From Schmidtea polychroa (lineage: Eukaryota), in NCBI GenBank assembly GCA_044892525.1, contig CM097885.1, positions 32,056,001 to 32,116,000 of the forward strand: 60,000 bases of DNA, written 5' to 3'. Of this stretch, positions 9,595-59,970 are shown piece by piece; within the stretch, counting starts at the first letter, position 1; each line of letters opens with the position of its first letter. The notes beneath the pieces were generated by a model. That model had not been told where the DNA came from. It made no database searches and worked only from the letters and a program-made list of their open reading frames with translations. Position numbers and translations under genes: made by a program.

Positions 9595-9636
<42 letters not shown>

Positions 9637-14296: not shown

Positions 14297-14333
<37 letters not shown>

Positions 14334-14341
14334 TTAATAAT

Positions 14342-14387
<46 letters not shown>

Positions 14388-14465
14388 CTTTAAACAGGTT
14401 GCAAAGGGTACTAGTCATGCTTATTATTGTTATACCTTTGATGGTTACATTTTGAAAGCTCTATT

Positions 14466-14897: not shown

Positions 14898-15022
14898 ATA
14901 AATGTATGTTTTGTTGATTTGTTGAGCGTGACCAGTACCCTTGTGAGCATTACCCATAGGGGGACAAAATATTTTGTCGGATAGACTCAGAGTATATAGA
15001 CTCGGTGTATATAGATTAATAC

Positions 15023-15112
<90 letters not shown>

Positions 15113-15236
15113 GATATATGGCTCATTCGAAAGGTCTTGGATTGAGCTTTAAAATGAGCTATCGATTATTAATTTTCGTTGGCGGGAACTTTGAAAAAAT
15201 TAAAAATAAAATAATAATATTTTTAAAAATAATAAT

Positions 15237-15900
15237 ATGACCTTGATGAGTCATCGCGATGACTCATATGACCTTGGGAATGACCTTGGATGAGTCATGT
15301 GACCTTGAAAATGACCTTGAGTCATAGGATGACTCAGATGACCTTGAAAATGACCTTGAAAATTTTGATGAGTCATCGGATGAGTCATATGACCTTGAGA
15401 ATGACCTTGATGAGTCATAGGATGAGTCATATGACCTTGAGAATGACCTTGATGAGGCATAGGATGAGTCATATGACCTTGAAAAAAATTTTCAAGGTCA
15501 AATGAGTCATACTATGAGTCATATGACCTTGAAAATGGCCTTGATGAGTCATACTATGAGTCATGGTCTTTGTTTCAATGACCTTGATGAGTCATAGGAT
15601 GAGTCATATGACCTTGAAAATTTTTTTTCAAGGTCAAATGAGTCATACTATGAGTCATACGACCTTGAAAATGACCTTGATGAGTCATGGTCTTTGTTTA
15701 AATGACCTTGCGAAATTTTTTTGACCTTGATGAGTCATATTATGAGTCATATGACCTTGAAAATGACCTTGGTGAGTCATCGGATGAGTCATGGTCTTTG
15801 TTTAAATGACCTTGAAAAATTTTATGAGTCATAGGATGACTCATGTTCTTTGTTTCAATGACCTTGATGAGTCATATGTCTTTGTTTAAATTTGACCTTG
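15237..15900. repeat. Subterminal array of TGACCTTG and TGA(G/C)TCA motifs, likely within the Polinton TIR
   Basis: About 25 copies of each motif by manual count. Confidence 0.9.
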
Positions 15901-15995
15901 AAAAAAAAATGTACTTTTAGACTTAGAATATTTTTGAAAATCTTACCGACGGGGGGGGGGGGGGTACTGTGCCAGCGGTGCCCAATCCATCTACT

Positions 15996-18030: not shown

Positions 18031-18416
18031 CAACTCATCTGATACGTATCTTTGAGCCCCATCTTACTTTACTGAACATCATTTTTTTATTTATAATACT
18101 ATTGTAGTGTAACGTTAATTCTTTTGAATGCAGTTTATTTTGTAATTAAAAATAATCTTTATCTTTATTCGAGTCATATCCTTTGCAACCCAACAAAAAG
18201 AAAGTATATAGTTATTCTCTATAGTAATAATTTACTATGGAGAAATTACAAATTTAAAATAAAATCGATAAAAAAGAATTTAAAAATCTAAGAGTTATAA
18301 AGTAATCAAGCTGATCAAGTAATCTGAAGCCGAACTTAATATTCATTAAAGGAAGATCCATAGATATTATAAAAGAGAAAGGAACTACATTTGTTGTAAT
18401 ATTTACTACATCAATA

Positions 18417-18771
18417 GGTATTTCCGTGTTATCTTACCCCCAAAAATTAAATTAAAAAAGAACACATAATTATTATATTTATTTTCTAAATCACAGTTAC
18501 AAACTCAGCAAATGTTTGTAAAGAGTTTGTAAATGGTCATCCAGGTGGCCAGAAAACCACAATGTCGTTGAGAATAGTGTTGAACACATCGGCACTGTTG
18601 CTTAGAACACGTTTGCGCCACATAAACTCACATAATCACATAAATCACAGATAGCCTTAATAAATTCATGTTCAATAACATCATCAATAATGTATTCTCT
18701 CATTTTTTATATTGTTTTTTTAATTGTATTTTATAATTTAATTTTTGGGGGTAAGATAACACGGAAGTACC
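18417..18771 (-). mobile_element. Non-autonomous Merlin element
   Basis: ~37-bp TIRs GGTA(T/C)TTCCGTGTTATCTTACCCCC..., 8-bp TSD CATCAATA; internal minus-strand EFMWRKR...DVFNTILNDI resembles a Merlin transposase C-terminus. Confidence 0.85.
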
Positions 18772-19800
18772 CATCAATATAGTGTTGGAAGGATCTAATA
18801 ATCCACAAGTTAAAGAAGAACTAATCCAATACTAGAATTGTTCAAGTTATTCCAAATTGTTCAAAGAAATTTATAAATTACAGTTCTTCATTAAATCACC
18901 TACCTTAATTAATAATGGCTTGTATCGAGATCAATCCTAAACCCTTACGGCAGTCGTTTCCAACCTGCGGGGCGCCCCCCCCCCCTAGGGGGGCGTGTTG
19001 ATGTTTTTAAAATCTTGTTAATGAATACAGATCAAATAGGTTAAAAAATAAATCAGTAGTATATTTAATTTACAATTCTTGTCGGAAATTTTTCAAATAT
19101 GAATGCGAAATTATTTCATTAAAAATATTCTCAAAACAAAATATCTCATTTTCTTTTTTCAATCCGAGCACTAATAGAGCATGAAAACAAAAGATAAGTA
19201 CTTGCATCATTCGTGTATTCTCGTACTTACGCACGCCAAACTTCAGAAATAAGAAGCATCTGATTGTTTATATTCTATAAACAAAAGTAGTTGTTCATAG
19301 TGCTCATGGTAACAACTTCAATACATAGATAAAACACTTTGATTTGGTATTTTAAAATATAAACATACAGATAGATATCATAACTATTATAATAGTACCT
19401 TGTTAATTAAAAAATGCTGATATAATTCAAGGTAGTTTTTCGAAACTAGCGCAAAATTTCGAATCTGTAAACATAAAATAACATTTATTTTGACCTTCAT
19501 CTACTTCTTTTTTTTCATTTATATCGATTTTTTACTTTATTTTATATTCACCAATAACATTTTAATGGATTAATATGAATATTGTTTTTGTAGTAATTCA
19601 CGGTTAAGTAAAAATGGCACAAGATATTTTTTTATTGTTTATATTCATTAATAAAATTTGTTAAAAAATTAGTTTTTAATTCTACATTTATAAATTATCC
19701 AAATTAAGACTGATATTTTATTTAAAAGGTAATATTGATTTAATTGTATTGTATTTTAAATTAATATAAAAGGCTTGATTTAAAATAATACCCCTTTTAG

Positions 19801-21679
19801 ATGGATAAATACGTAACTAGCTTTAAAAGAAAATCAAATGAAGCTGAAGCTGAAGCAGAAGCAAAGAGCGAAAATAAAGAAGAAAATTTCATAAGCATAT
19901 CTTCACAAATTAGTAAACTTAAATATAGAAAATATGACCCAGTATACTTATCATTTGGATTTACATATAAGATTATTAATGGAAAAGAGCATCCATTGTG
20001 TTTATTGTGTATGAATACTTTGGCCTCAGACAGCATGAGGCCAAATAAGTTAAAACGACATCTGAAAAAGTACATGGTGATCACGTTGGTAAGACGAAAG
20101 AACTTTTCAAAAAAAGTTAGAAAGTTTAAGTAAACAACAAGAAATGTTTCTAAAGACCATGTCTATATCACAAAAAGCATTGCTTGCGTCATATAAAGTT
20201 TCTTATAGAATTGCCAAATGCAAAAAACCACATTCGATAGGTGAAACTCTTGTGTTACCTGCAGCCATTGATATGATAGAAACTATGCTTGGAGAATCAT
20301 ATGCTGACCAACTTAAAATAATCCCCCTTGCAGATAACACGGTTGGAAGACGAATATCAGATTTATCCGAAGATCTTTGCGACCAATTAATAGAAAAAGT
20401 AAAACTATCTTCTTTCGCATTGCAAGTAGATGAAGCTACTGATGTTATTAAGGATGCACACGTGATAATATATGTAAGATATGTTGTTGAAACCGATATT
20501 AAAGAAGACATGTTGTTCTGCAAACCTATTGAATTTAATACTACAGCAAAGGAAGTTTTTAAAATCATTGATATTTTTTTTAAAGAAAATGGCATTCTAT
20601 GGGAGAACTGTGTTGGGCTATGCACAGATGGAGCTCCATCCATGGCTGGAAAAAACGCTGGTCTACAGGCACTAGTTCGAAAGGTGGCTCCTCGTGCAGT
20701 TTGGACACATTGCATGATTCATAGACAATCACTTGTATCAAAAAATATGAATGAAGATCCCCTGGCAGTATTTGAAATTGTTACAAGAGTTGTAAATTTT
20801 ATTAAAAATAGCCCATTAAGAGCAAGGATTTTTGCAAAATTGTGTGATGACATGTGTTCAGAATATAGATCACTTCTATACTATTGTGAGGTACGATGGC
20901 TTTCACGTGCTAAAGTACTTTAAAGGGTGTTTGAGCTAAAAGATGAAATCGCTATATTTCTTAGTGATAATAATAGAGACGAAGCACATTTGTTTTTTGA
21001 TACGAAATTCCTTGTTAAACTTGCGTATTTAGTTGATATTTTTCAAAAACTTAGTATTTTAAATAAATCAATGCAAGGGGCTCAATTTCATACTTTTACG
21101 CAGAAAGACAAGATCACTGCATTTATCAAAAAAATAGAACCGTGGATAATATTTTTAAAAAATAATAACTTTGACATGTTTCCAACTTTTAAACTTACCT
21201 GTCTCGCTGAAGAAATAGAAGAAAGTAAAATTTTTATTAACAATCATTTGACAAGCCTACAGAAGCAATTTTCGTTGTACTTTAAGGATCTAGACATGTC
21301 CAAATATGAATGGATTAGAAATCCATTTATGATTGAGGAGTATAATGATTTTAACCTTACGACAGCAGAACAGGAAATGATTATTGATTTATCTAGTGAT
21401 AGCACATTAAAGCAGATGTTTTATGATGTAAATAATATTGTTACATTTTGGCTAAGAGTAAAGGACGATTTTCCCACTTTGGCAAATAAAGCTTTAGAAA
21501 TTTTATTGCCATTTGTAACATCTTATTTGTGTGAAACTGGCTTTTCTACAGTAGCTGTTCTTAAAACGAAGCATCGATCTCAATTAATGATAGAAAAGGA
21601 ATTGAGAACCGCGATTTCTTCAATGATACCACGATTTGAGAAGATTTGTGCAGGAAAACAAGCTCAAATATCGCATTAA
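19801..21679 (+). pseudogene. ZBED5/Buster-like transposase with frameshifts near 20070-20110 and stop at 20921-20923
   Basis: BED finger CLLC...LKRHL, FALQVDEATD, CTDGA, HCMIHR, VRWLS, YLCETGFS. Confidence 0.92.
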
Positions 21680-33521: not shown

Positions 33522-34741
33522 TGTTTAATTATAACTTCAAACCAACATTAATGTTTTACAAACAAAAGATATAATAAATTTAATTAAATAAATTAAATAA
33601 ATTGTTTGTTGGTATTTAAAAATATTTTAACATATTACTTAAAACAATCAGTAGACACTTGGTAACAAATATTTGTTAATTATCTTTTTAATTATAGCAA
33701 ATTGGAATTATTTCCTTATTAATATTTAGGAATACGTTAAGAAAGTAAATATTAAATATATAAGTAGTAAATAGTAAGGACTCCAGCGCACTTTCAAGGT
33801 CATGGAATATCAAGATCAAATATAGACCAATCGAATCATTTATTTTTTAAATTAATATTTTATTTAATTACTTCTTTTTAATTTTTTTTCTTTTTAATTT
33901 TATTAATTAATTATTTTATTATGTTTTATTTTAATTACTTACGCTATTTAATTATTATTATTATTTTTTTTAATTTTCTTAATTAATTATTTTATTATGT
34001 TTTTATTTTAGTATTATTTTATTTATTTATTATTATTATTATTATTTTTTTTTAATTTTACATTTACATTATATTCTAACAAGAGGTAAATTATAACAAT
34101 AATATTTCAATTTGAATAAAATTTTAATTAGTAATTATTTAATTTGAATAAAATTTAATCATATTAATCATATGGGCGAACTCGAGAACGGGTAAGAATT
34201 TTTTTATACAGTTTTTTTTAGAAAATAGAGCACTAGTTACTCTTTAGTTACTTTTAAAAAGTGAAATTTCACTGCTGATGTCTAGAAATCACTCTTTTAA
34301 TAGAGTGAAGCCTGGTCAGTCGAAAAATTTCACTTCTATATTGATATACAGTTGGAAACAATCTAAGATTATTGCAAGCACGGTTAGCGAGAAAAATTTA
34401 GTAATTTACTAAACACATTTCTCTACTATTTTATCTCGCATAGAAGCAGTATTTTCTCACTGCAAACAAATTTTGTACTTTTAATCTAATCAAAAGGTAA
34501 TTTTGCAGTATTATTATAGATACCCACATACATTTGTGCAGTGTCAATTCGATAGTAGCACTTACTTTATCGAAAATTCTAGTACTGCCTCACTCATAAG
34601 CTAAACATATGTTTGAACACTGCTGCTCTTCATATATTGAGACAGTTAACCACTTGATAGTATCTTTTTATATCAGAACATTATTACTTAAAGTAAATTA
34701 ATAATAAAATCAATTTATTTAAATTTCATCAAGTTGCCGTC

Positions 34742-36437
34742 ATGCTTAATTCACGTGTATGCCTTAATCGTTTTGTAATTCCAGAAACTAAATTAATATG
34801 CCAACTTTATTTTGGCATAGCACCTATAGATCCGGTAACCAATTCATGGAAATGTTCGTGTGGAAATGTTCGTAAGCAGAACATAAAACTTGGTTACTCT
34901 AACTTAATAAGCCATATCAAACAGAAACACAAAAATTATCTTGATATGTACCACCTAAGTAAAAGTGCTAGTGTCGAAGGTGACTCGCAAGATATTGAAA
35001 ATAGTAACGAATCTCGAGAAATTGTTCCTTCTCTTGCATCACGACAGATTACTCTAAAGTACATGCTTGATACTAGATCAAAAAACATTTACAAATGGAT
35101 GGAATGGATCATAATGGATGAACATGAACTCGTTTTTTGTGAAAAAGAGTTTACTCGTGCAAATACAAATCTTGAATCTATTTCCGTCAAAACAATAAAA
35201 AAGTATATGTTTAAGGTAGCAGACAAAGTAGAAAAAAAATATTTCTCTCCAAGCTAAAGAAGCACCTTGTTATGCACTAGTATTTGACGGATGGTCTGAA
35301 AATTCTACACACTTCATTGGTATTTTTATTGTCTTCTCAGGAAAAGAAAGAGAAGATGCTCCATTTATGCATCTTTTGGCCTTTGCACCGTTACTTGATG
35401 AGACAAGCTTTAATGCAGATAATCACGCTCAATTCATTCGTGCAACAACCAATAGCTACTCCCTTTCTTTGAGTAATTTATTTTGTTTAATTGGGGATAA
35501 TTGCTATACAAACAAGGCAACAGCTAATCTTCTTGGTGTACCCCTTTTAGGCTGTCGTAGTCATCGTTTTAATATAGCTGTTGAAGCCTATTTAAACAGA
35601 TTCCTTTCTACATAAACAGATGTAATAGGAATGTTGATGTCCAAATTATCAACACTCAAGCAATCAGGCAGAATGCGTCTCATGACAACACTTCGCCCAG
35701 TCAAACGAAACGTCACACGCTGGCCTGGAATTCCAGATATGTTGGAGCGTTTTAAAAGATTATTACCACGCCTAAATAACGAAGATGAAGAACTCTTAGA
35801 ATTTATTCCAACTGCAGCACAGAAAAAAAATGTTCGTGAACGTAAACAAGCATTAGTGGACTTCAAGTCGGTTACACTATCCATCCAACGAAACGACATG
35901 ACAATAAATGAATCAGAAGTTTTATTTCAATCAATAATAGATTCATATCCAGAAATGAATTTTGCATCCTATATTGGTGAAGATGCAAAAATTATTCATA
36001 ATAAGCAATTGGAATCCGCAATCATCAAAATTCAAGGAAAAAAGGAGATTTATCTGACAGTTGAAGAAAAAGAAGAAGTAAAAAAATTGTTATTAAAAGT
36101 CGATAATAATGAAGGTGATTCTCAAGAACATTTTGAAACTTTATCTTTTGCAGAGAGGGCCCTCAAGAGACAACGATTGCAAGAGAAGCAAATGTGCAGC
36201 AAGTACATCAATACTAACTTTTTAATTCCAACATCTTGTGAAGTGGAAAGACTTTTTTCTTTAGCTAAAAGAGTATTTAGTCCTTACAGAAGAAGCTTGC
36301 ACCCTCAAACTTTAGAGACATTACTTTTTCTAAATCGAAATAAGTCCCTTTGGAATTTGACTCTAGTAGCATTAGTGGTCAATGAAAAAGATAATGACAA
36401 GGATGAAGATGAATACGAATTTGAGGAAGAATGGTAA
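34742..36437 (+). pseudogene. hAT-like transposase with BED-like finger; one frameshift (~35235) and one stop (35613-35615)
   Basis: CSC...NLISHI..KH, FDGWS, IGDNC, GCRSHRFN, TRW, PTSCEVERLFS. Confidence 0.88.
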
Positions 36438-44720: not shown

Positions 44721-47700
44721 AATTCAATAGTTAAAAAAAATTATTTAAATATTATCTGATGACACTAATTTATTTTAAAAATTATGTTCTGTGATTAATC
44801 GATTAATTAATTTTTCAATAATTGATTTTTACTATTTGAGTGCTTATTAATTATTTGAGCACTAATTGCCGCACGCAGTAAATTTTTCAATTATTTTGCA
44901 AATAATAATCTAATTAAATATTGAAATAAAATATTAAAAGGTATGAGAATAAATCAAAAGGTAAAAATTGAAACGTCACCATGAGAATAACAAAACAAAA
45001 CTGAATCAAACTTGGTTGCTATTGAGATAACTTTATTGGGATAAGTTTACCTTGATATTGTGCTAGGATTTAAAACTATATCCACCAATATGTTTAAGTT
45101 TGTAAGCATCCTCCAGTTGGAACAGTTTTTCAGATGTACGTCCAAATCAACTTGTTGAAAATGAATTTCAGATAACTACTTCGTTTGGAAAGTTTTTTGT
45201 CAAAATAAAAGTTTCAATTGATACACATTATTATAATAGTTGGGATAATAACAAATTTTTTATAGGAATTTTGTTCTCGTGTTCAATCAAAATTAATAAT
45301 CGAATTCCAAAAAAATAATTAAAAAATGATGGGGTAGACACCGAATGGATATCACCTCCTAATCAAATACATATTTGATTCGGTTAACTTTATTCGAATA
45401 AATCGCTTTCAATTTCGTCCCTGTTTTCTCTTTGGCCGGTCAATAAAAATATTTTTAATAAAAGTTTCCTGTATCGACCAACTGGCAATTTTAAATTTTA
45501 TCTCTTACTTTTATATGGGTTGTTCCCCATTCATCATTTTCTTTTAATGGGAGTTGACGTTTCGTTACTCAAAATACCCATGTAATAATGAGACTATTTT
45601 CTCCTTATTATTTTTGTGAATGAACTTTTATCTGGTTTGATTAACCGGTATTGATATTGATAAATCTAATAATTTTTTTGTAAAAATTATTCCCATCTCA
45701 ATTAATTAATCGGCATCATAAAAATTTCTATCATTATTATTATTTTATTACACCAATCCCTCGCTTTACGAAGTCTCTTTTTACGAAGTTTCGCTATAAC
45801 ATAAATCTGTTTACAAAAAAAAATTCGATTTACGAATTTTTGTTTTTTATTTAATTAGAGAAATCACACCGTACGAATATACAGAAACAGAATACAAAAT
45901 AAAACAAATGAATTATGTATTTATTGTTGTGATTACACCAATCCCTTGCTTAACGAAATTTCAACTACTGAACCTCAACGTCAACAGACACCTTTGGTAA
46001 TAGGATCCATCTAAAATAACAGACATCGCACTCGTTTGGGCATACGAAACCGACGGGAATTAAAGGCCCTCCTAGAGTTCATGAATCAAATCTACATTGT
46101 TTTAATCGCGAAGAAATGTCAGAACTTAGACTATTTTGGTGTATTAATTTCATGTAAATCAAATCTTTCCGGATATCAAACAAATAGGAGAACAAATTAC
46201 GAGAAATGACAATTATTGGAAAGTTAGTTGAAAGTTCTGAAATTCCAAATTCTAATTCCAAATTCAATGTTGAGGATACCTGGATAACAAAAAATTCATA
46301 AAAATAATCATGGGGAAAATGGCGTCATTAAATTTAGGTTTTCAAAAAATGATTAAAAATATTGATCGAAGTCACAGAACTGGAAGAGACAATATCATAA
46401 CAATATCATAAAAATTTTCTGAAATTATTTATGAATAAAAACATTTTAGAAAGCATAAAGAAATCACTGTAATTTTGTAAAATTAATTTTAAATGAACCT
46501 GATTTAATGAAAAATATAACTTTTAACTAACCAATTGCCCATAATACATGTCCTTATCTTACAAAATCGATATGGTTTTTTTATATATAATGTCCTCAGT
46601 TCCTTAAATATAAAAAGTTAGAAAATGTTTAAGCACAATGCTCAAACTTTTTATAATAAAAAAAGTATATATTATATGTCGTCATCCCTTATTTAATTTA
46701 ATTTTGACCCTTATTTAATGTCTTTTTTTACCTTTATTTTTTGAACTTTGTACCCAGTGCTACAACAATCTTACTATTTTACACTTAGTCAGAAATTTTT
46801 TATCGTTCAAAAATGTTATATTTTTTATCCAATATTAAAACAAAAAATTACAAATTTACAAAATATTTATTCTAAACAGTAAAAGGATCAAAAGATTAAT
46901 CAATAATGACGAGTCTCATTTTAAATATCAGAAAAGAATTAAGGATGTTTTCGAATAAATTTTTCATGTTGATATAACCAATTATTCCACAAACAAATAT
47001 ATACGATTTTTAGTTAATTTTTGGTTCTTTTAGAATTGGTACCAAAAATTGCTGACTTATTAAAAAATATTATATAAAATTAGTCAGGTATTTTTCATCG
47101 TTGAAAATTTTATTTAGAAAAATGTTTTATCCAATATTTATCCAATTTGGAATATAATTTAAACCTATTGGAAAATTGAAATCATTTCTTTCTGGAAATT
47201 TTACAGTTTGGATTTAAAGGAATTCCGAAAGCTCTCAAAAATATCCAATAATTCATTTCGAGGTTTGTATGGAGTAGGAAACTTATTTTTATTTATATAA
47301 TAAAATCTTTATTAAGGAATCAGTGCTTTATACTGTTATGTTTACTTTTAAATTTTCTGTATTTTTTACTAAAAAATTTCGGGAAATACTTTCTTGCTTT
47401 GACACCTACATCGGGCTGTTGATGAATGTTAGGACCTATCTTGATCGCTTAGAAATAATCTTCAGGGCGGTTTGTATAACCGATTATCTTTCCTTTAGTA
47501 AAGGACAGTAGTTTCTTTTATATCTGTTGCGGGTACACTACTCGGATGACCCCTTTCTAGTGCAACTTTAGTCTAGAGGATGAATGCCACCTCGATTTCG
47601 CTCATCATTTATTTGGTCATCACCGAGCGGGACCCGTACATAACTTACACTCCAACATAGCACCCGTGAATTGCTTCACGTTGGAACTGTGCTATGCCGG

Positions 47701-48089
47701 CGAGACGCCAGTAAGCAGGTGAGCCAGCTCCTCCGGACTACTCCTTACTGAGGCCTCGACTTCCCAACCCTGACTGCCGATAGAAGGACTTACGTCTACT
47801 CATTCCGTCGCCCCATCGCAATGTTTCTAGCTGAGTTTGCCAACTGACTAATGCTCCTCCAAGTTTTATGACTCTCAATACCATTCACCAATTTCAACTC
47901 AACTGTCCTAAGATGAACACAAAAGGAAACGTATGCAGACAAAATGGTTTATTATTAAGATTATCACACAAATATACCTAACACCTATACAATAAAATTT
48001 ACGACCACCGGAAAAGAAACAAAGGTAAAAATGTTATCCGACAATGTTCGGGTCATTTCAGTGAACGAAGACTTGTTACGGAGAAGTTC

Positions 48090-48839
48090 TCATTTCTCCC
48101 ACTCTGAGTCTGCCAACAGATCTTCCAAATCGAAAAATTCAGAGGCATTTTCCTCCCAGGAAACACCAGCGGCGGAGATGATTCGCCCTGAGATCACTGA
48201 TGCTAAATCGATTGCTGCAGGAGGGTTGATGACTTTGATTAGATGATCCGACGATTGCTGGTTCTGTTTGGCGGTTACGCGTTCCCGCTGTTTCTTTTTG
48301 CGTTCGGCTCTCGATAATTGCCGACGCTTTGGCTTCGATGCCGTTGGATTGGTCGGGGGTGTTGCAGAGGTAGATGCCATCACAGGTAACGCTTTACTGG
48401 TTCCGGTAAAGATGACTTCTGGTTCTTTAGGTGAGAGCTCGGTCTCTACGCACCCATGGCAGGACTTTCCGACTGGAGAAGAAGATCCGCCAGAGATATC
48501 ATGATGTGCTGGGAAAAGATTACTGGCTTCATTAATTGGGATCTTCGCGATCCTCCTTGTGGTTGCTGCCTGAACGTATAATTTGTGCAGCGCCTCCGAC
48601 TGCTCTTTTATCAGGCTCCTCTGCGCCCGACTCTCGGAAATCAACGCGTCTCTACAGTGCTCGCTTCGATGCAGCTTCTTCTGAGCCTCCTTCATCTGGG
48701 TGGGACTAAACCATGTCCCCTCCAACTCATCTATCCTTCTCTTATGCTTTCCGATTTGGGCCTGGAGCTCTTTGATAATTGAATTCTTGTCGGAGCAAGG
48801 AAAACAAGGTCGAAGAACGGTCTTGGAATTTGGCAACAT
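48090..48839 (-). CDS. ORF within the putative LTR, 249 aa: CxxC, coiled coil, basic NLS-like stretch, acidic tail
   Basis: ATG at 48839, 11 nt after a strong acceptor (polypyrimidine-CCACAG); AATAAA at 47948-47953. Confidence 0.7.
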   Translation of the reverse strand: MLPNSKTVLRPCFPCSDKNSIIKELQAQIGKHKRRIDELEGTWFSPTQMKEAQKKLHRSEHCRDALISESRAQRSLIKEQSEALHKLYVQAATTRRIAKIPINEASNLFPAHHDISGGSSSPVGKSCHGCVETELSPKEPEVIFTGTSKALPVMASTSATPPTNPTASKPKRRQLSRAERKKKQRERVTAKQNQQSSDHLIKVINPPAAIDLASVISGRIISAAGVSWEENASEFFDLEDLLADSEWEK

Positions 48840-51338
48840 TTTTGAGTGACTGTGGAAAAAAAAATGAAAAATGAAAATAATTAACTCAACTGGAGTGTCA
48901 CCATCTGACCCCATTCATACTTTACAGATCATAGACAAAAATATGAGTTTACCAGTCAAGACAAGTACTACTGCACGATGGATTCTCATACCTTTTGGGT
49001 CTTTGATTATAAGAAGATAAATCGATCAAACCCGATTCCGTACACGGAAAGGAAGGTAATACTATTAGTGAGAGAGATTCTAGATCGATGAAAAAGGATT
49101 ATTTAGTTAATCCGCTTGAAGTCATTATTTCACGTTTACCGAGCATCGAGTTACATTGTTGATTTCTCCCCCCGTACGAGTGATTTTGATGAGTGTATCA
49201 TATACTGGGGTCGAGTGACTATCTATGGAAAAGGGGTCCATAATGTCTGTTGATTAGTTCCTACAGGATAAACGGAATGCTATTTAAATTTTTAATTATT
49301 TATTCATTCTCTCTAATTACTCACATATGTGTTTTGCCTGGTTTAAATATTATTTATTAATAATATTCGACATTAATATTAATGATAATTATGTCAAAAA
49401 TGACATAATTTCCGTGCCATTCATTCTACGATAATAAAGAGAGAATAATCATAATTACGATCGGGTTTAGCACTAAAAAATATTATCTTTATGATAACTG
49501 AGCACGGTATCAATGTGAGCTAGTAGCCGACCATTCCTACTAGGTAGATAAGGAAATGTCAGCCCGGTGGTTGACTATTAATCCAGAGCGGTGAAATATG
49601 ATACCTGTCGGTAGTCTAATTGGTTAACAGAAATTCCATCTGGTATGTTCGTCGGATTTTTCCTGAGTAGAGGCGTGTGTGACTTTGCCCACTGTACTTG
49701 GCCACTAGGTGAGTCTGTACCTGGTGACGCATGCAGGGTGTGCTTTCACACACTTAATTATACTACAATTGTAGGTGTTAAATGTTTGCAAGATGTCATT
49801 TTCTCAGAATTTTATCTATCGCGTAATCACTCACAATTCTCCTGCATATGGCGCTGATTTACTAATTCTCACCGGATTATTGGAAAAATTATAATTATCT
49901 GTATTGCAAATGTTGGATATAGCTTGCTCCACGGGTGGATTTTTTCGTCTTTAATTCCTCAAACCTAGTTTATCGATCTACTCTCTAAGTGCTGGAGGAT
50001 TTCTACCTATCCCTGCTGGATTGCCAACCCCACGAAATACTGGAATTTTATATTTAATTAACAAGATCATCGGCTAACTTGAAGAAATATATTTTTCGTG
50101 GCTCGCATTGGTTGCATTTTTCAATTCTAAATTATTTGATGCCAATAGTTTATGTGGTTATGATAATTAATTGTATGTAACTCCTTTTATATAAAATTCA
50201 AAAAAAATTATGATAGCGAATCATTTTATGTAATTTGAACTTTTATTTGGAACAAACTCGTTTTATGCAATTCTGAATAACTATTTGGATTAAATCATTT
50301 TACCTGGTTCTACCCTTTATTTACAAGTAGTCATTTCGAGTAAACCTAATACTTGTATGAAGCAATCTACTTTGAACTCCCTGGCAACTATGTCTTTAAG
50401 AGAACTTTTAGATGAACGGAATAACAGTTCCGTAGGTCATAGGCTAAAAATTGGTCGAAACAGATTCTGAGTGAAAAGTATGAACATCGAAGATATGTCA
50501 CAGATAGCCTCACTAAGGTTTGAACAATTTTTGACACACAACTTACATTGATGATAGAGAAAATTTAGGCTTAGCAAAACCGATATTCGAAGACGATAGT
50601 GTGACACTCTCAATCACTACGCGAATACATCAAAATTTTCCGATTCCTTTATTACATATCTTTGTTTTCAATCACTACATGACTATCAATTTCGGCCCCC
50701 ATTTACCTATAGATTTTAGTCGCACCTTCAGCGATTGGACCCGTGAAGAAGCCCTCACATTTCGGCCCAATCTAGCTGCGTGATTGAAATACCCTATGTC
50801 CACCGGTGGAGCTCCCGAAGGCACCTCACACCATGACATAGAGTATCTCAACGCCACGTTTCTCGCCAAATTGAATGGTCTCCAATAATAATTCATAAAA
50901 ATTAATTCATAAAAGATCGATAATTCTGAACGAGCAAATCATTTATTATTAAGCAAATTATTAATTTAAATAAAGTATTCTAATATCAAACGAAAAGAAA
51001 AACCATTTTTTAAATTAAGAATATTATTGAACTATACGCATTACTTAAAAATCCAAACTAAGCAATCAAAAATCCTTACCGAATGATTGATACAAGTATG
51101 GGCTGAGTCGAAAAGGGTACTATGTCGAATCAGTTAATGCTCGAGTGTCGTCTAGTTCTGTAAAAATCTTTTGAATCTTGGAATTGTCCTCGTGAGTTAT
51201 CGTGCGTTAGTTGCTGGAGTTCTGTTCCGTCGTAGAATAGATTTACCTATTGAGGTGGTTTGATTAACAGTCACAGTTATTTAAATTTCACTTACCTATT
51301 GAGGTGGTTTGATTAACAGTAATTGTTATGTTTTTAAT

Positions 51339-51378
51339 GCCTGCTTATATATTAATTTTTTGTTTGCGCGGACCAATT
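51339..51378 (-). promoter_or_regulatory. Putative LTR promoter (CCAAT box plus TATATAAG)
   Basis: Minus-strand ATTGG...TATATAAGCAGGC upstream of GTAAG donors. Confidence 0.45.
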
Positions 51379-52026
51379 AGAATTGAGTACCGCTTTATTT
51401 TATTAATTTAATTTATTTTCTTTGTTTTCGAGTTATTTCTTCTTACTTTCTTTATTAAAATTATGTTTTTATTTATTTTCCTTAATTTTCTTAGTATTTA
51501 CTATATTTTACGTTGTTTTCTGTCATTCTATTGTCTTATTTTAATTTTTCTCATCTTTATATTTTTGTTTTAATTCTTATTTTCTAATTATTGTTTTTCT
51601 TATGTTTTATTCTATTTTATTTGTCAATTTATTTGTTTTTATTTTTTATTTTATTTTAGTTCAGTTTCCCTAATTCCCAACTACCCTTCGACTCAGCCCA
51701 ACAAATCACTCGGGGACCCATCAAAATTGCGTCCCGCAATTGCATAGCTATCTTACTTCAGACATTCATAAAAAGGATATATCGAAATAATTATACTACA
51801 ATAACAAAAACAATTTTATTCTAAGATATAGGTCAAAACAAGACCAAGCAAGTATCACTTAAGGTGATAGTTTGTATATACAATAAAAGTTTCTACATAT
51901 GATAACACCAATATTTGAGTTAGAGTTTATGAACTGTTAACCATTTGATGCTTCTGCTGGCGGTTGTTGGTTGGTTTGGGTATTGATGTTGAGATAGGTC
52001 TGACTGTTAGAATGCGGCTGGATTGG

Positions 52027-52596
52027 TTAATTACTCGGGATTCGAGGTCGGACTGGGGTTGGGTTAGGATTTGTCAGTGGCATTTCTTGAGGATTTCTGT
52101 TCGAGGTTACTCTTATTGATGTCGAGATTCTGCATTTATTTCTAACTTCGTAAATCTTCATGATTATTAGTAGACATAGGAGGAGGGTTTCTGCGATCAC
52201 CACATATATGAGATAATGGGTGTCATTGATTTTGGGAGGTATTTTTGGCTTTTCTACAAGATTTTCAAAATTCTCTTGTTGCATTTGTTGTTCCAACTGG
52301 TCGAATTGTTGGATTTGTTCGAGGATTTGTTTGTTTATCATTTTACAAATGGGATTCTTTTTACACATTGTTTGGATGTTGTTGATGTGTGATCGGGTTG
52401 ATTGAATGGTTTGGATGATATGGATTTTTACTGTCATAGGGTATGTGCATTGGCCGGATTCTCGTTTAGGTTCTTGATTTTGATTTCGGTAATCTCGTAC
52501 GATTTTCGGTTGGGCGTTTACTTGTTTGTTCTCCGTCAGAATCATCAATACCGTCATTGTTATCATCATCTCGCCTCGCATGATACTATTATACAT
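52027..52596 (-). CDS. Small type-I membrane protein
   Basis: N-terminal hydrophobic segment, Cys plus coiled-coil ectodomain, TM YLIYVVIAETLLLCLLIIM, Pro-rich tail. Confidence 0.75.
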   Translation of the reverse strand: MYNSIMRGEMMITMTVLMILTENKQVNAQPKIVRDYRNQNQEPKRESGQCTYPMTVKIHIIQTIQSTRSHINNIQTMCKKNPICKMINKQILEQIQQFDQLEQQMQQENFENLVEKPKIPPKINDTHYLIYVVIAETLLLCLLIIMKIYEVRNKCRISTSIRVTSNRNPQEMPLTNPNPTPVRPRIPSN

Positions 52597-52640
52597 TCAT
52601 TATTATACATTCATTACAATTGGTTTTAGTGACCCTTAAT

Positions 52641-53348
52641 TTAATGATTCTGGTTTGGGTTATTTTCGGCGATTCTCATCAGGGTGGATTCCGCTTTAAT
52701 GACTCTGTGTCTTAACTCGGGCAGCATTTCCAACTGTCTGTTCTTTTCACGGGCCTCCCTTCTCATGTGCCTTATCTCCTTTTTCAGTCTCTTAATTTCT
52801 TCCCGTTTTTTGTCGAGATTCCTTTTTAGTTCGATTTGTAGGAAATCTTGTTCGTTTTCCTGCGAAAGGTTTCGTTGTTGTTGTTGTTGTTGTTTTCTCT
52901 CGATCTCTTGGTACTTGCGAATCTATTTCTTCATTTCCTCACTTTCTCGTTGTTTTTCCTCCAATTGTCGATTTAATTTATTTATAGTTATTTGGTGTTC
53001 TTTCGCCTCTGTTTTCCAATAATCTTGGATTACTTCTTCTGCCTTGAAGCTTGCCCTCTCTTGCCATAGTTCCTCTGCAATCTTTTCCCAGTTTCTTCCT
53101 CGTGTTCGTTGTTCTTGCAACCATTCATTCTTCTCTTCAGCTTCTCTCTTTATTTCTCCTAACACTTCGCACTCCTTCTTTAGTATTTTAATCATTTTTC
53201 GGTCTTCTATATATTTGTTTACTAGTCTCTCGTTTTCGTCCCTCTCTTCCCGTAACTTGGCCTTTAACGTTTGTGTTTCTGTTGTTTCTGCCTCAATCTC
53301 TCCCTCTTCCACGTCGCTCGTAATTTCTATTATTTCCTCGATTTTCAT
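52641..53348 (-). pseudogene. Coiled-coil protein with one in-frame TAG at 52923-52925
   Basis: Frame stays open 94 codons past the stop with the same coiled-coil composition. Confidence 0.7.
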
Positions 53349-53515
53349 ATCTGTAATATGTACAGTTAATGGTGCGCTATAGTGCGACTTATACTTATGC
53401 ATTTATATAAAATTTTAATAGTTCGGGTTACAGTCCCTTGAATACTTTTACAATACTTTAATTTTTTTGTTTGGGATATACGTCCCGATTTTTGTTTTTA
53501 TCTTTTTATTCACCC

Positions 53516-54571
53516 TTATACGAAGGTTTCCTCCTGTCCCACATAACCTTCGTCACTATCGACCGCTGGATGCAACTGTATCGCAATAGGGTCATAGGGT
53601 AGGTAATATTGGGGGATTTGAGCTCTCAATTCATTAACTTCGTCTCTTAGAGCTCGAGTGATATTCAGCTCTTCGTCGAGCAGATAAGTGAGATACCTTG
53701 TCTCTTCGTCTTTCGCCTCTACTTGTCTATCTAAGGCCTTGATTTTCTCGTCGCCCTTCCATTTTTCAATTTCTATTTCCAAGTTTTTGATATTTTCGGT
53801 ATACATTTTCCTCTCGTTTTCTAATTTTCTGTTTTTTCCCGCTAGGACCATGTTTCTTTGTTCTAACGATCCTTGTAATCCATTAAGGTCTCTTTTCATC
53901 TCTTCGACCTGATTTACTAATTCCACAATCCGTCCTGCTTGTTGGGTTATCATCTCTTCCATTGCGGCATTCTCGTGCTCTCTTATGTCGCATTTTATTG
54001 CCAAATGTCGCTCAAACTCCATAGCCTTTGTCTGCCAGGTTTGACTTCGGGCGGCGACCTTTCTCAACCGTTTCAATTCTTCCTTTATTATTAAATTCTC
54101 CTCCCATTTGCCTTGTTCGCTTTCATATCCGAGTCTCATGGGCAATTCTTTCATCTCTTTTTTCATTTCACTGTTTTGTCTTTTCCATTTTCTCGCTTCT
54201 GCCACTAAGTGCATCATTTTCCTTCCTTCTATTTGTTTTTCCGCTTCGCGCTTGGTGTTCTCATCGGTAAGTCTCTTTCTCGCTTCCTGCACCAGCTGCT
54301 TTAAGTAGTGGCTGTGCGCTTCTTGGCGGGTATTTTCTAGTGACCCCCATTTTGATGCTCTTTTGCATGCTTCTGCTTCCGCTCTTAAGTTGTGTATTAA
54401 CCATTGGTATTGACTATTCTCATCCTCTCTAGCTTCTTCGATGTGGTTTCGGGTGAGATTAGTTAGTTGAAACATTACTTTGTTCCATTTTTTGTTATGT
54501 TCTCGGGGAATTTGTGTCTTGTTGACATTGGTTGGGGCTATCGCTGTTTCGGTTAGTTTCTCTTGTGTCAT
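53516..54571 (-). CDS. Long coiled-coil (SMC/myosin-like) protein, 351 aa
   Basis: Intact E/K/R-rich heptad ORF. Confidence 0.8.
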   Translation of the reverse strand: MTQEKLTETAIAPTNVNKTQIPREHNKKWNKVMFQLTNLTRNHIEEAREDENSQYQWLIHNLRAEAEACKRASKWGSLENTRQEAHSHYLKQLVQEARKRLTDENTKREAEKQIEGRKMMHLVAEARKWKRQNSEMKKEMKELPMRLGYESEQGKWEENLIIKEELKRLRKVAARSQTWQTKAMEFERHLAIKCDIREHENAAMEEMITQQAGRIVELVNQVEEMKRDLNGLQGSLEQRNMVLAGKNRKLENERKMYTENIKNLEIEIEKWKGDEKIKALDRQVEAKDEETRYLTYLLDEELNITRALRDEVNELRAQIPQYYLPYDPIAIQLHPAVDSDEGYVGQEETFV

Positions 54572-54764
54572 CTCTAAATCATAGACATCGATTAATCTTT
54601 TTATTATGAAAAAGGAATTTATTCATTATCTACTGTTTCTTTGGGAATTTTCGCATCATTTTTGGGTTTTCGTATTTAGGGTTTTCATACTATTATTATA
54701 TAATATTTTATTGGTTATATACACCGATATATACAGATTATTATATACAACGTTATTCGATTGG

Positions 54765-56153
54765 TTACTCCGTTCTACCCTTCTCCTCTTTCCTCACGGT
54801 CATCTTGATATACACCGTGTCATTTCTTGCCATATCTTCTACTTTTTGTTGTAGGATGAACGTAGGTGCTCCTGTTGCTGATCCTTCTTCTTCCGTAGGT
54901 CTCTGGTAACACATTTGGTTTCCAGTTGTCTTGAAGCTTTGTTCGTGGATGTTTCGGTCATTCATTAGTGCAATATCGATTTTTGCCTGGAACGGCCACT
55001 CTATTATTTCGTCGTATTCCCCTTTACATAGCAGAAAGAAAATCGAAAAGTGCGTATCTAATCCGGTTCCGTCCCCGTTGGGATATATCTTCATTTTCAT
55101 TTTGTACAAATTTTTCCCAGAATGGAATGCAGGACTTGTTATTCTTGTCTCTTCTCCGGTTTTTGCTTTTCGTATTCTTTCTTTTACTCCCGTTATTTTC
55201 CATATGTAGGGTGCTGTTGGTATTACTTCATTTAGATTTATTTCCCGTATTTTCTGATGTAGCTCCTTGGCCTGATTATTACTGATTTCTATTCGGTTTA
55301 TTTGCATCTTTATGTTTGCTCGGGCTTCTTCGAACGCTTCCCTTTCTTCTAGTAGTTCTTTGACTAACACTTTCAACGATGTTATCTCTATCTCCATTTG
55401 TTTTATTTTCTCTTCGCTTTCTTGTAACGCAGTCGACCACATTTCTGCGTGGGTTGAAGCATTTTCTACTAAATGATGTGGTAACTCCCCTCGGTGTAGT
55501 AGTTTCTGACAACCCCATTTACCTAGTACACATGTCATTCTTTTCCTTTCACATTCCCTTAGATGCTGTGCCACTTTCAATATTTCCCCTTGGTTACATC
55601 CGTTTGGGCATTCCCCACTGAATTCTGCACATACTTTCTCCTCTTGGACATTGTGATGTTTGAGGGTGAGATTTTTCCACGTGTCTATTTCTCCACAATG
55701 TTCACATCTTTCCAATCTCTCTTCACACTGCCTTTGATGCTCTTTTTCTTCGCTTGCTCGAATGGTTTTATGGCACCTTTCACACTGGCCAATTCTGTAC
55801 ATACATTCTCCCATATGTTGTACTACCTTCCAGATTACTCCTTTCCATTCGCATGGGGCATTTTTGCATCCCAGGTTGGTGTTTAACATATCTTTGACTG
55901 CGGCTTTATCCTCGTTAGTGTCTTCTAAACTCGATATTAGTGTCTCTTTACACACCGGGCACCGCTGTGGTCTATTCTTTATTGCTTCACTGATACATTC
56001 CTTACATACTCTGCATCCACATTGAGTTTGGTGAGGTTCCTTTAACAACTTTTCACATATTCCGCACATAACATGTTTGTGTATTCTGATCGTTGTAGAT
56101 TTTCGTATTTGCTCGACAATCTTTCTGAACTCCTCTCTTTGTCGTTTATCCAT
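54765..56153 (-). CDS. Intronless TRAF-family protein (RING, TRAF zinc fingers, coiled coil, MATH)
   Basis: CGIC...QTQCGCRVCKEC...CPVC; YIWKI...SPAFHSG...IYPNGDGTG..THFSIFF...GEYD..IEWPF. Confidence 0.93.
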   Translation of the reverse strand: MDKRQREEFRKIVEQIRKSTTIRIHKHVMCGICEKLLKEPHQTQCGCRVCKECISEAIKNRPQRCPVCKETLISSLEDTNEDKAAVKDMLNTNLGCKNAPCEWKGVIWKVVQHMGECMYRIGQCERCHKTIRASEEKEHQRQCEERLERCEHCGEIDTWKNLTLKHHNVQEEKVCAEFSGECPNGCNQGEILKVAQHLRECERKRMTCVLGKWGCQKLLHRGELPHHLVENASTHAEMWSTALQESEEKIKQMEIEITSLKVLVKELLEEREAFEEARANIKMQINRIEISNNQAKELHQKIREINLNEVIPTAPYIWKITGVKERIRKAKTGEETRITSPAFHSGKNLYKMKMKIYPNGDGTGLDTHFSIFFLLCKGEYDEIIEWPFQAKIDIALMNDRNIHEQSFKTTGNQMCYQRPTEEEGSATGAPTFILQQKVEDMARNDTVYIKMTVRKEEKGRTE

Positions 56154-56238
56154 TCTATAATTATATGTACATATAGTCCTTATCGATACAGGTTCGATAT
56201 TTTATTTACAATTATTTACATTTTAAGCTAGGTTTGGT

Positions 56239-56598
56239 TTAGGGTTCGGAGGAGTCGGCTTCGTGTCCGCTCTCCTCTCTATTCATTAGCCAGTCCGACC
56301 AGTCTTCTATTTCTGTCTGTTCTGCTTCCTCCATCATTCTGTTTAGTTCAATTTCCTGTCTACGGCTATATTGGGTTATCCTCTCTATCTCTCTTTGCAT
56401 TTGGTCGATTTTCATCCTCTGGTCTTCAATTATCTTCAAATAACTAAATCCTCTATTCATACTCTCGATTAGGTTTCTGTGCATCGTCAATCCTTGTTCT
56501 TGCAAATTGGACACTAATTGTGCTAATACGGCACATTGTTGCTTCCATAATTCTTCAGTTACTGTATTGTGGTTCATTTCGTTATTTCCTTGATCCAT
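56239..56598 (-). CDS. Small coiled-coil protein, 119 aa
   Basis: ATG at 56598; helical; acidic tail ESGHEADS. Confidence 0.65.
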   Translation of the reverse strand: MDQGNNEMNHNTVTEELWKQQCAVLAQLVSNLQEQGLTMHRNLIESMNRGFSYLKIIEDQRMKIDQMQREIERITQYSRRQEIELNRMMEEAEQTEIEDWSDWLMNREESGHEADSSEP

Positions 56599-56758
56599 TC
56601 TTAATTTATATACACTTTTCAACTCTTATTTAAAGTTAATTTTATTTTATGATTCCCGTTATTGTATAATATTGATACCGCGCTTATATAAAGATATGGT
56701 ACTGTTATATACATAAGATATACTTACTTTTTACAATTATATACAGTCATATTCCTTT

Positions 56759-59700
56759 CTATATACGTGAGTTTGGAGGGCGCTGAGCGTTCCAGGCCTC
56801 CACCCACTGTTCTTGTTTGATATCACTTGGTCGTTTCACTCGATGTTGGAAATTTCTGATTCGGGTCATCTCTAGTTCTCCGCGATGTCGTTTATCTTTA
56901 ATTATTTTTATTGTTCCCCCCGTTATGATTAGGAAGGCTCCTGTTATTATTATCCCACTAATCCACATCATCTGCCTCACGCTTATATTTTCTGGTTTCT
57001 CCTTGTTTGTTAATGTTACTATTGCTTCTGTACTTTTCTCGTTCCCTCTTTTGCCATTTCCTTTCATCATCTCTCGTATTCTTGCTATTTCCTCGTTCAT
57101 ACCCTCCTTTGCCATCTTTTGTATTTTTTCCATCTCTTCCTCCGAAACATAGTTGTCCTGAGCTTCCTCACCGGTTTTCTTGTGCTTTCCGCCTTCGTCC
57201 TTTTCGTCGTTGTTTTTTCTTTTCTTTCCTCTTTTCACCGGGTATCGTCGACATTCCCTTTTTGATTCGTTCCTCCAGATACAAACCGTGTATTCTTTCG
57301 GCGGCTGTTGCTGCGTCACGTATTGATGGCATTTCTCACCTGGTCCTAATCTTGAAATACAGACTTTGTGCTCTTTTCTAGGTTGGAGTTGCGTTATTAC
57401 TACTTCACCACCTTTTCCTAGGTGTACCTCTTTTCCTTTAACGTTCGTTATTCTCTTCCCGTCTCGATTTCGGTATGCTTCTTGTATTCTTACTTCTGTT
57501 ATTGGTTCTGTGTCCTCATTTATCAGTACTAGTTTCTGATACGCTCTAGACATGCATCTTCCTAGTATGCACCTTTCCTTTAAGTCCCATTCCTCCTTTA
57601 AATCCCACTGCTGCTCTTGTGCTTGCTTTTTCTTTTCTTGTTTTAGCTCATCCTCTTTGCTGTCTTGATTCTCCGCTTCTTTGGTTTCTTTTATCGTTCT
57701 CGTCCCTCCATGAGCTGTTACTAACTCTATCATGGTGAGCATGATTATCATTAATATCATATTTGTCTCTATTTCTTTGTTAGTGAAAGGTAGGCATACC
57801 CTCTGTTTTCCATTATTCGGTTTTTCCTCCTCTTTGGTCTTGGTTCCCGGGCTGTTTCCCTCTCTTTTCGTATCCAAATCCTTGTTTTCCGGTTTATCCT
57901 CTTCCGGTTCTCTTTTCCCTTTATCCTCTTTTCGGCCTTTTCCGTCATTGTCATCGTGTTTATCTCCCCCGCTGTCGTTTAAAATGTCGTCCTCGACATT
58001 TATATCGTTCAATAATCTGCGATATGCTGTTAGCACCCTGTTTCTTGCTAATTTTGCTTCGAATTCAAACTCTTTTCTACCCGTTGCAGCATGTCTCTTT
58101 CTATTCCATTCTTTGACTAACTCTCTCAATTGAATACGACGATGTTTTCCCACTCGTTGTAGCTCGTTCTGATTTTGCGTGAATTTGAGGTCTTCTCTGT
58201 TTAATACTATTAAAATAATTTTTGGTGTCCCCCTTTTAGTTAATGTATTCTTTACCATTGCGTTTTCTCCGTTTTCGTAGAATTCGTTTATGTTTATCGC
58301 ATATTTATTATTTTGTGGTACCCTCCATGTTAATAATAATTTCATTGCTTCTAGATTTTTCCGTACCGTATTCCATTGAAATTGAGATGTGTTTTTGCAC
58401 ATATTTTCAACTTCTTCTTTTGTCGCATTTTTGCAAATAAATCTGATCATTTCCAAGTTTGGCTGTATGGTTGCCCAGTCCAATGTGGAGTTCCCTTCGT
58501 TTGATTTTTCGTCTAGTCTCGATCCTGATTGATGTAGGATGTGGAGTGTTTTTGGGTGTATTTTTGTTATAGCTGCATACATCATGGCGGTTTCGCCTTG
58601 TTCATTTTTCGTGTTGGTTTCCTCGCCCATATCCCCAAGGATTCTTATGATCGTTATTGCTCTATTCTCTTTTGCAGCCAGTATTGCTTGTTGTAATGGT
58701 GTTCTTGAATCTTTCGTCACCATCGTAAATGCTCGAGGCAAGAAGGTTTTGATTTTCCCGATATCTAAACCCGTGGTTTGATCTCTTGCGTATGTGTGTA
58801 CGGCTTTTATTATTTTTGACAATATTATTTCGTCTGACAGCTCTAGCATTTCCTCGAAGAATACTTCTTTTGCTTTGCGTATTATTGTCTCTTGATCTAT
58901 ACTCATTGATTTGGTTTCGATGACGTTGTTTGTGACCGTTTGGTTCGTTGTCGACTTTGGTTCCCTTGATTTCCCATACATTATATTCGTTTTCTTTCCG
59001 TTTGGATTATTGATTCGTTCCTCTGCTGTAAGTATTTGGATAATATCCAGGTAATTTTCGCGGATGTTATTCATTGTGTCCATCATATATAACACACTTA
59101 CCGTTTCCCAATATTTATTTCGTACTTGGTTAATAAATTGGAATAGTGATTTTTCGAATGTGTCGATTCGCTTTTTTGCTAACTGTTCATCTTTATGATT
59201 TGTGAATTTTATCCCTCGTTCTAGTAATTGATTCGGGATTTCGAATAGATGATGTCCTTTCATAGCTTCTCTCATCAGCGTGTTCTCTCCTCTCGTGAAC
59301 GCTTCGTTTACGTTGATCATATAATCATTTTTAATTGGATTTCTCCATGTAATTAGTATTCCGGTAATTGTTGTCAGTTTTTCTTTGATCGCTGTTAACA
59401 ATCCATCATACATGTTTCCGACTTCTCGATTGTCCTCATATGATAGTAGTTCCATCAATGACGTGAACGCCTCGGTACTTTTCCCTTCGATAGCATGATG
59501 TAGTGCATTTTTCCGCTCGTGGTCTTGTGTAGTTATTTTTGATCCAGTATCAAGTAATGCGGTTATAATGTCTTTGGTTTTGCCTCTGTTTGCTGCTATC
59601 ATTAATGGTGTGTAACCTTGGTTGTTTTCTTGTTCTGTTGATCGCTTGCAGTCGTGAAATGCTTCTATTGTTTCCAGTATTTGCTCGTTGTTACCTACTT

Positions 59701-59970
59701 TCATGAGTTTGTGTAATGGTGTGTCTCCGTAATGATCTGTTATTGTAAATAATATTGGCCATTGGCTTTTGACTACTCGCAATAATGGGTGTGTCCTTTC
59801 TCTTTTCTCTCGATCATCGTCAATAATCCTCCTAATATTTCGAAATCTAATCGATCTTTTGCCCATCCAGGTATTTTAATTTTTACCTCTTTTACAATCT
59901 TTTCCGCTTCTGATGGTTGGATACCCAATCGTCCAGTGATCGGTTCTGCGAGTTGTTGCATCATGTTCAT
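56759..59970 (-). CDS. Ankyrin-repeat protein (two tandem modules) fused to a membrane-protein part; frameshift near 59790
   Basis: GDTPLH, GYTPLMIAA, KNALHHAI, GETAMMYAA, GNSTLDWA; hydrophobic MILMIIMLTMIELVTA; FN3-like ITQLQPRKEHKVCI; TM WISGIIITGAFLIITGG. Confidence 0.85.

Follow-up and report, generated by a model that had tools for sequence, protein, structure and literature searches.

Does the terminal repeat of a planarian retrotransposon carry a gene of its own, and what might such a gene do for the element? The question is raised by a 60,000-nucleotide (nt) stretch of Schmidtea polychroa DNA (hereafter the window), of which we analysed a 12.6-kilobase (kb) portion of an element on the minus strand. 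From its ankyrin, RING and MATH/TRAF cargo, the element is a putative Burro-like giant Gypsy retrotransposon. The portion ends in a unit of about 4.2 kb, TGACA...TGTCA (47400..51626), taken as the 3' long terminal repeat (LTR), with a firm right end and a left end that is a best guess. A 249-amino-acid (aa) open reading frame (ORF) inside this unit is a real protein-coding gene under long-term conservation. We propose, with a probability of roughly 0.45, that it is an LTR-encoded spliced regulator working like Rev, Rex or Rem of complex retroviruses, or like CERV of the Gypsy element Cer1, without kinship to them. Features lie on the minus strand unless stated otherwise.

The ORF (48090..48839) opens with an ATG at 48839 (AAAAATG), ten bases past a splice acceptor, and closes with a stop at 48092-48090. 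In 1000 block-shuffled units the longest ATG ORF averaged 85 codons with a maximum of 185, and none (0/1000) reached 249. A library of 1.84 billion sequences yielded 11 relatives (E 4e-8 to 7e-4), and two more were recovered by profile search. The 13 relatives are about 24-46% identical; all have the helical core and nine have an Arg-rich motif. When a profile was built from 10 relatives, with the window protein left out, it recovered the window ORF at E 1.8e-23; the only further frame was marginal (E 0.89). The family core spans approximately residues 30-113, with W43, P46, L66, E69, R71, Q73 and R74 invariant in 12 rows, and is followed in the relatives by a variable linker and then the Arg-rich motif (4-8 Arg per 12 residues in 8/10 aligned relatives, and in P0012). 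A Met stands in register with 48839 in 9/13 relatives, as judged by eye. An in-frame upstream ATG at 48914 was rejected as the start, as it would have the pyrimidine tract translated and the relatives start in register with 48839. Of the 40 read variants listed, with 896 others beyond the list, seven fall in the ORF; the three in the core (codons 63-65) are all silent and three of the four in the linker or tail change a residue, in a sample that is small and pre-selected. The original prediction had placed a protein-coding spliced gene inside the terminal unit, with a minus-strand TATA, GTAAG donors, a strong acceptor, this ORF and AATAAA. These signals were right to within 1-2 bases, and the coding claim is borne out by the ORF length, the 13 relatives with the profile result, and the order of the signals.

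Word-index searches gave 0/597 candidates with the single window protein, and with the profile 3/8000 (all known) and 3/7999 (two new). A metagenome scan confirmed 0/107 pattern matches, and the internal ORFs of the window were matched by 0/13 relatives. Nine of the 11 database relatives are gene models chimeric with host genes, so that the family exon corrupts gene annotation. Their host parts contain, above cut-off, nine distinct Pfam domains (subtilase, actin, SNF transporter, glycine cleavage P, L21, CRAL-TRIO, ABC, tyrosine phosphatase and DAD1), which lie upstream of the family segment in five models and downstream in four. Fusions to unrelated host genes are what a strong-acceptor exon would be expected to cause near the end of an element or within a solo LTR; the pattern, seen in protein records alone, fits solo and paired LTRs alike.

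The limits of the terminal unit were examined with contigs assembled from public sequencing runs (X1, X2, X5 and X7), of which X2 and X5 come from two studies and X2 is possibly the same sample as the window source. Contig depth jumps at 47401/47402 from 670 to 151,820 in X2 and from 90 to 21,669 in X5, and contigs span the right-end junction in both (46921-47485 and 46921-47477, respectively). Together these results fix the right end of the unit at 47400. The unit has 5-bp inverted termini (TGACA at 51626, TGTCA at 47404-47400) and adjoins an imperfect purine-rich candidate polypurine tract (51627..51688). An alternative TG start lies at 51663, and purines make up 11-12 of the 15 bases preceding either candidate start. 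X5 depth was 14,186-21,669 and 6,966-14,900 at the unit ends, 867-2,670 just inside the element and 2,758-6,415 in the TRAF region. As contig depth does not measure copy number, we treat such contrasts as a hint. The original prediction depended on LTR boundaries that enclose the ORF. No purine tract followed by TG, as a short LTR starting below the ORF would have, was found between 47400 and 48150, and relatives are joined upstream to host exons. Over 47400-52100 the sole purine run of at least nine followed by TG is at 48157, inside the ORF. Thus the whole 4.2-kb unit is very probably an LTR, and the gene would hence be present at both element ends and in any solo LTR.

Within this unit the minus strand presents, in order, a TATA box, an ATG-free leader with donors, the acceptor, the 249-codon ORF and a poly(A) signal. 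The TATA box (TATATAA, 51351-51345) is preceded by a 61%-A stretch and would place the start near 51320. No ATG occurs from 51526 to 51041; over the 266 nt between the TATA box and the last donor, 2% of 10000 shuffles were likewise free of ATG. The leader holds the donors AG/GTAAGT (GT at 51295; this 8-mer occurs 2 times in 120 kb, both strands counted), AG/GTAAAT (GT at 51246) and CG/GTAAGG (GT at 51079). The first two are contained in a 49-bp tandem duplication (D2, 92%; 51243..51329), the one at 51246 in its second copy, and other element copies have a one-unit form (X2 joint 51242 to 51292). The acceptor, with its AG ending at 48850, has 18/20 pyrimidines and is tied for best with five others among 2422 YAG sites. 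The predicted 2.23-kb intron (48850..51079) contains dozens of ATGs and a candidate branch word, TTAAT (48884-48880). Downstream of the ORF, an AATAAA at 47953 is followed by a U/GU-rich tract (47910..47953), from which we infer a poly(A) site near 47935. TATA-like words and AATAAA are each frequent here, at about 3 per kb, and carry little weight alone. Because the leader is free of ATGs and the intron rich in them, translation of the ORF would require either splicing or a start closer to it. The transcript probably starts from the TATA box at 51351, is spliced to 48850 and ends near 47935; in such a short mRNA the ORF would begin at the first AUG. The sequence would also allow a 78-nt non-coding second exon (51080..51157; acceptor ending at 51158, donor 51079). 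An X1 loose end at 48858 was not used, as it may come from a diverged copy keeping the acceptor or merely from another host intron. Short plus-strand antisense frames of 33-82 codons lie within the predicted intron (49645-50783).

The encoded protein consists of a helical core (residues 18-98), an S/T/P linker, a basic helix (approximately 170-204) and an acidic aromatic tail (229-249). AlphaFold2 gave confident helices at 18-40, 46-98 and 177-204 with disorder between them (mean predicted local distance difference test score, pLDDT, 67.7; predicted template modelling score, pTM, 0.33). When two copies of residues 15-115 were modelled, a parallel in-register dimer was obtained with a score of 0.52 (best of three controls 0.00), contacts agreeing by at least 93% between runs and pLDDT of at least 81. 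The mark used in this dimer test was reached by 21/30 solved homo-pairs and 0/23 single chains from microbes, and by 17/29 and 0/30 from eukaryotes. In this model the core pairs as a parallel coiled coil, which supports dimerisation. The Arg-rich RNA-binding and nuclear localisation motif of Rev, Rex, Rem and Rec has a counterpart in the family, and the window version lies in a predicted helix. In one of the 11 members a sub-threshold Pfam REV match covers the basic motif (E 0.0007-0.0013). A strict export-signal spacing, in the usual spacing classes of such signals, follows the basic motif in 3/6 relatives, although such patterns also arise by chance. A Foldseek search with the monomer model gave no match at E 0.001 in BFVD or PDB. 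Profile search of PDB gave seven weak matches, the best at E 0.059 and all on the basic motif, and the ESM Atlas returned only unnamed or unrelated clusters (0.82-0.90).

A candidate response element was found in the predicted intron at 50730..50860, where the minus strand could form a long stem with G-U pairs and a second nested hairpin. A folding scan of 77 windows over 52100-47421 was best at 50900-50781 (z -4.0). Refolding 50890-50690 gave z -4.67 for the minus strand (0/200 shuffles) and z -2.53 for the plus strand (3/200), the minus-strand fold being stronger because of the G-U pairs. The element lies in the intron part common to many copies, and in a diverged X5 loose end at 50774 (two contigs) the inner hairpin can still form, with G-C in place of an A-U pair, as seen by eye. 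No Rfam family fits, the one chance match scoring 19.8 bits against the 50 needed. A second fold candidate at 49770-49510 is weak (z -1.97), and the fold window 51680-51561 was rejected as an A-rich artefact.

An element with such a unit faces a particular problem. Whichever promoter produces it, the genome RNA must keep the intron, because daughter LTRs would otherwise lose it; a switch is needed because that RNA retains strong splice sites and has to read through the poly(A) signal at 47953 one time. Under our proposal, default splicing would yield the regulator mRNA. The regulator would dimerise via its coiled coil and enter the nucleus, where its basic helices would bind the folded element at 50860-50730, which is present only in intron-keeping RNA. 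Unspliced RNA bound in this way would be spared splicing and premature polyadenylation and could be exported from the nucleus. The suggestion of the original prediction that the basic stretch and acidic aromatic tail mark a nuclear regulator remains the best reading of the protein, as a reading only. The Burro-like identity, the Arg-rich motif of the family and the intronic folded element are additions to that prediction. That a whole self-regulating circuit like those of complex retroviruses (promoter, response-element intron, Rev-like gene and poly(A) signal) sits in the LTR and arose separately in a Gypsy element of an invertebrate is a further step that we consider doubtful.

A number of observations weigh against this proposal. 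No splice junction appears among the 15 of 57 contig joints that were listed; the list is ranked by depth, so that deep DNA runs prevail in it, and among 15 runs none with the stretch is recorded as RNA. The X1 contigs spanning the acceptor and donors are unspliced, four of them covering 48306-51361 almost fully with 1-3% differences. The window protein has no Pfam match, and neither sequence nor fold kinship to Rev, Rex or Rem was found above threshold (Pfam; PDB and BFVD at E 0.001). In this protein the basic stretch contains more Lys than in the relatives (4 Arg and 3 Lys in 12), and the strict CRM1 export-signal pattern is absent. With a coiled coil, a positive dimer score may come from general resemblance. 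Set against the hairpin kept in X5, the long stem of the folded element contains the commonest read variant, at 50840, whose partner position is not in the list; the hairpin could also serve as a signal for packaging, for dimerisation or for small RNAs. As to the LTR itself, the placement of the 13 relatives in LTRs is inferred only. The twofold excess over the internal region that an LTR should show is visible in X5 and not in X2, where the unit ends (107,000-320,000) exceed the adjoining bins, yet not the TRAF region (118,000-249,000). Finally, the tail, with a net charge of -9 and three aromatics in 20 residues, reads equally well as an activation domain.

This last point leads to the main rival, in which the same gene encodes a transcriptional activator of the element, comparable to Tat, Tax or the foamy virus Tas. 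The coiled-coil dimer would place its basic helices on LTR DNA or nascent RNA and the tail would activate, so that positive feedback would arise from every LTR. The tail, which may resemble VP16/p53-type activation motifs, is in keeping with this, as are acidic aromatic patches past the basic motif in P0004, P0006 and P0012, the missing strict export signal in the window protein, the parallel dimer model and weak bZIP_1/HALZ matches in 1-2 of 11 family members. However, the basic region follows the coiled coil by 70 residues instead of preceding it as in bZIP proteins, and in the relatives Arg predominates, in a pattern rich in Asn and Arg as in Rev. The folded RNA lies about 460-590 nt past the inferred start, in the intron, and not at the 5' end like the trans-activation response element (TAR). 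An activator would furthermore leave the retained-intron problem unexplained. We regard this explanation as somewhat unlikely.

The transcript layout could also differ from the one proposed. As in mouse mammary tumour virus (MMTV), the ORF might lie in a very long U3 and be reached from donors elsewhere in the element, with genome RNA starting from a TATA word at 47522 and carrying a very short R. The signals at 51351-51079 would then be a secondary promoter or unused, and the function of the protein would be left free, including action on host RNA or stem-cell genes. No 3.4-kb R is needed in this arrangement, and MMTV sag, rem exon 2 and nef of human immunodeficiency virus (HIV) are located in U3 (PMC12789967). 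The distal, G+C-richer LTR part (47400..47909) is well conserved and contains GTAAG words at 47793, 47748 and 47648, an AATAAA at 47613 and the TATAAAA at 47522. The layout requires read-through of the textbook poly(A) signal at 47953, however, with no AATAAA after 47522, and does not explain why a 485-nt ATG-free leader with the rare AG/GTAAGT donor should stand just past the upstream TATA. It is compatible with the regulator proposal as to protein function, and as a layout it is improbable.

That the LTR is only the last 0.5-0.7 kb, so that the ORF would be the last internal accessory gene in the position of env or CERV, with a single copy per element and none in solo LTRs, is very improbable: the presence of only one terminal unit inside the window, the shallow middle of the unit (8,000-20,000 in X2, 0-35 in X5), contigs that replace 47800-48125, a left boundary uncertain by about 40-60 nt and X2 depth of the ends not above the TRAF region are outweighed by the missing purine tract and TG between 47400 and 48150, the inverted 5-bp termini at 51626/47400, the 5/11 relatives in which an upstream host domain adjoins the family segment without an intervening element ORF, and the long LTRs of Burro (PMC6431247).

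The middle of the LTR is an observation in its own right. At 49072-50407 X5 has almost no depth and X2 about 1/10 of that at the unit ends, whereas both ends are common to copies; this middle segment appears to be subfamily-specific. Coverage gaps (X7, guessed to be RNA, over the ORF; X5, a run that does contain the 47400 junction, over nearly all of 49072-50407) were not used, as contig holes prove nothing. Contig joints 46493 to 51395 and 47307 to 47392 (24-letter sides, AT-rich) were set aside as noise.

Set beside known systems, the proposed regulator resembles those of complex retroviruses, which meet the same need with a small, basic, multimerising protein that is translated from spliced RNA and recognises a structure in the unspliced form; of the response elements, RexRE is within the LTR and RmRE overlaps the LTR (PMC12789967). 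As with Rev and the Rev response element (RRE), and the corresponding Rex/RexRE and Rem/RmRE pairs, there is a small basic protein with modelled multimerisation, a predicted spliced mRNA and a putative structured RNA element. Unlike these systems, promoter, intron, RNA element, ORF and poly(A) signal would all be inside one LTR. Rev is a helix-loop-helix protein, from which the window protein differs by its long coiled coil. It also differs from bZIP or HBZ-like factors, in that the coiled coil occupies 18-98 and the basic region begins only at about 170. Coding sequence within an LTR is shared with MMTV sag, rem exon 2 and HIV nef, splicing being predicted in the present case; those ORFs are described as spliced provirus products (PMC12789967), whereas here the whole intron-containing unit would lie inside the LTR. 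MMTV Sag, unlike the window protein, is a membrane protein. CERV, from the C. elegans Gypsy element Cer1, is described as needed for export of unspliced RNA (PMC10309623). The likeness would extend to an extra protein from a spliced mRNA of a Gypsy element (splicing being predicted for the window ORF), predicted coiled-coil pairing and a basic nuclear signal (PMC10309623). In contrast to CERV, the window protein has 249 aa in one coding exon, all within the LTR, and its family has an Arg-rich motif. No Pfam or fold match links the two, CERV having been compared by description and not by sequence. Additional ORFs of plant LTR retrotransposons offer a broader parallel, being conserved, kept in most copies and of unassigned role (PMC7264820).

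Burro and GYPSM1, the giant Gypsy-like elements of planarians, share with the present element the presence of ankyrin, RING and MATH/TRAF in one element, a long terminal unit and an AT-rich host. Burro LTRs must average >2.5 kb, given internal regions up to 25 kb and a total >30 kb (PMC6431247), and an LTR of that length has room for the ORF. MATH/TRAF may be a separate accessory ORF in such elements (PMC6431247). This agrees with the Dugesia tigrina Burro element, in which TRAF is a separate accessory ORF; there it is described as 'upstream' of the polyprotein, unlike the present TRAF ORF, which lies 3 kb before the element end (PMC6431247). The hallmark Burro polyprotein of about 5000 aa, Gag-(Env)-PR-RT-RH-IN in Gypsy order (PR, protease; RT, reverse transcriptase; RH, RNase H; IN, integrase), would here lie beyond 60000, and the Gag, RT, integrase, BIR, BCL2 and Env parts are outside the window. 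The accessible part of the Burro account names no gene inside the LTR, in contrast to the present unit (PMC6431247). Nor did the literature searched contain an account of a gene inside Burro LTRs; the primary Burro paper with its supplements and the Repbase entry lay outside that search and may annotate the ORF.

ORFs in retroviral LTRs are already known (PMC12789967), and so, in the papers found, is Rev-like control in one Gypsy element, Cer1 (PMC10309623). If a whole regulatory circuit does sit in the LTR, each solo LTR would be a free-standing regulator gene able to activate intact elements in trans, and also a strong splice-acceptor and poly(A) trap for host genes at its insertion site. 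Burro elements occur in thousands of copies in planarians and are PIWI control targets in regeneration studies (PMC6431247; PMC8532177). An LTR-borne regulator would offer one small RNA interference (RNAi) target and one exact splice junction for probing the element life cycle, and a Rev-like switch wholly within an LTR would bear on the origin of complex retroviral regulation.

The remainder of the analysed portion is an accessory block (52027..59875) that is strongly A-rich on the minus strand, with ORFs arranged head-to-tail. It encodes an ankyrin and membrane protein (56759-59875; Ank_2 E 6.6e-18), a TRAF-like RING and MATH protein (54765-56201; MATH_2 E 9.5e-26, zf-C3HC4 22.1 bits with a cut-off of 21), charged helical ORFs (53516-54622, 52923-53402 and 52641-52922), a small membrane protein (52027-52596) and a 128-aa ORF, the membrane and helical labels having been assigned by eye. 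A single in-frame stop codon at 52922-52925 splits the charged helical frames 52923-53402 and 52641-52922. The motif TGTA(A/C/T)ATA occurs in 10 copies in six short gaps between accessory ORFs (51700-56758), where 0.22 are expected; 0/5000 shuffles had as high a count, in gaps picked after the motif had been noticed. This motif, which matches the Pumilio element, overlaps TATA-like words too. AATAAA is also present in most of the gaps between accessory ORFs, and given this each of these ORFs may be a separate unit.

Elsewhere in the window, Polinton/Maverick-like genes occupy 1900-13898 on the plus strand and encode an A32-type ATPase, an integrase with a chromodomain and an adenovirus-type protease; a 1272-codon frame among them has a weak endonuclease VII match. 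A reverse-transcriptase fragment (15855-16397, minus strand) and two interrupted hAT-type transposase remnants (20093-21679 and 34697-36437, plus strand) were also found. An 8-nt stretch at 21206-21199 on the minus strand lies between a top-ranked acceptor and the only other AG/GTAAGT donor of the window, and is possibly a microexon. Next to the LTR, within 47299-47319, the plus strand carries an AATAAA, and one X1 contig enters 18 A residues 15 bases later; a host transcript perhaps ends here, 80 bases from the LTR, hinting that X1 contains complementary DNA.

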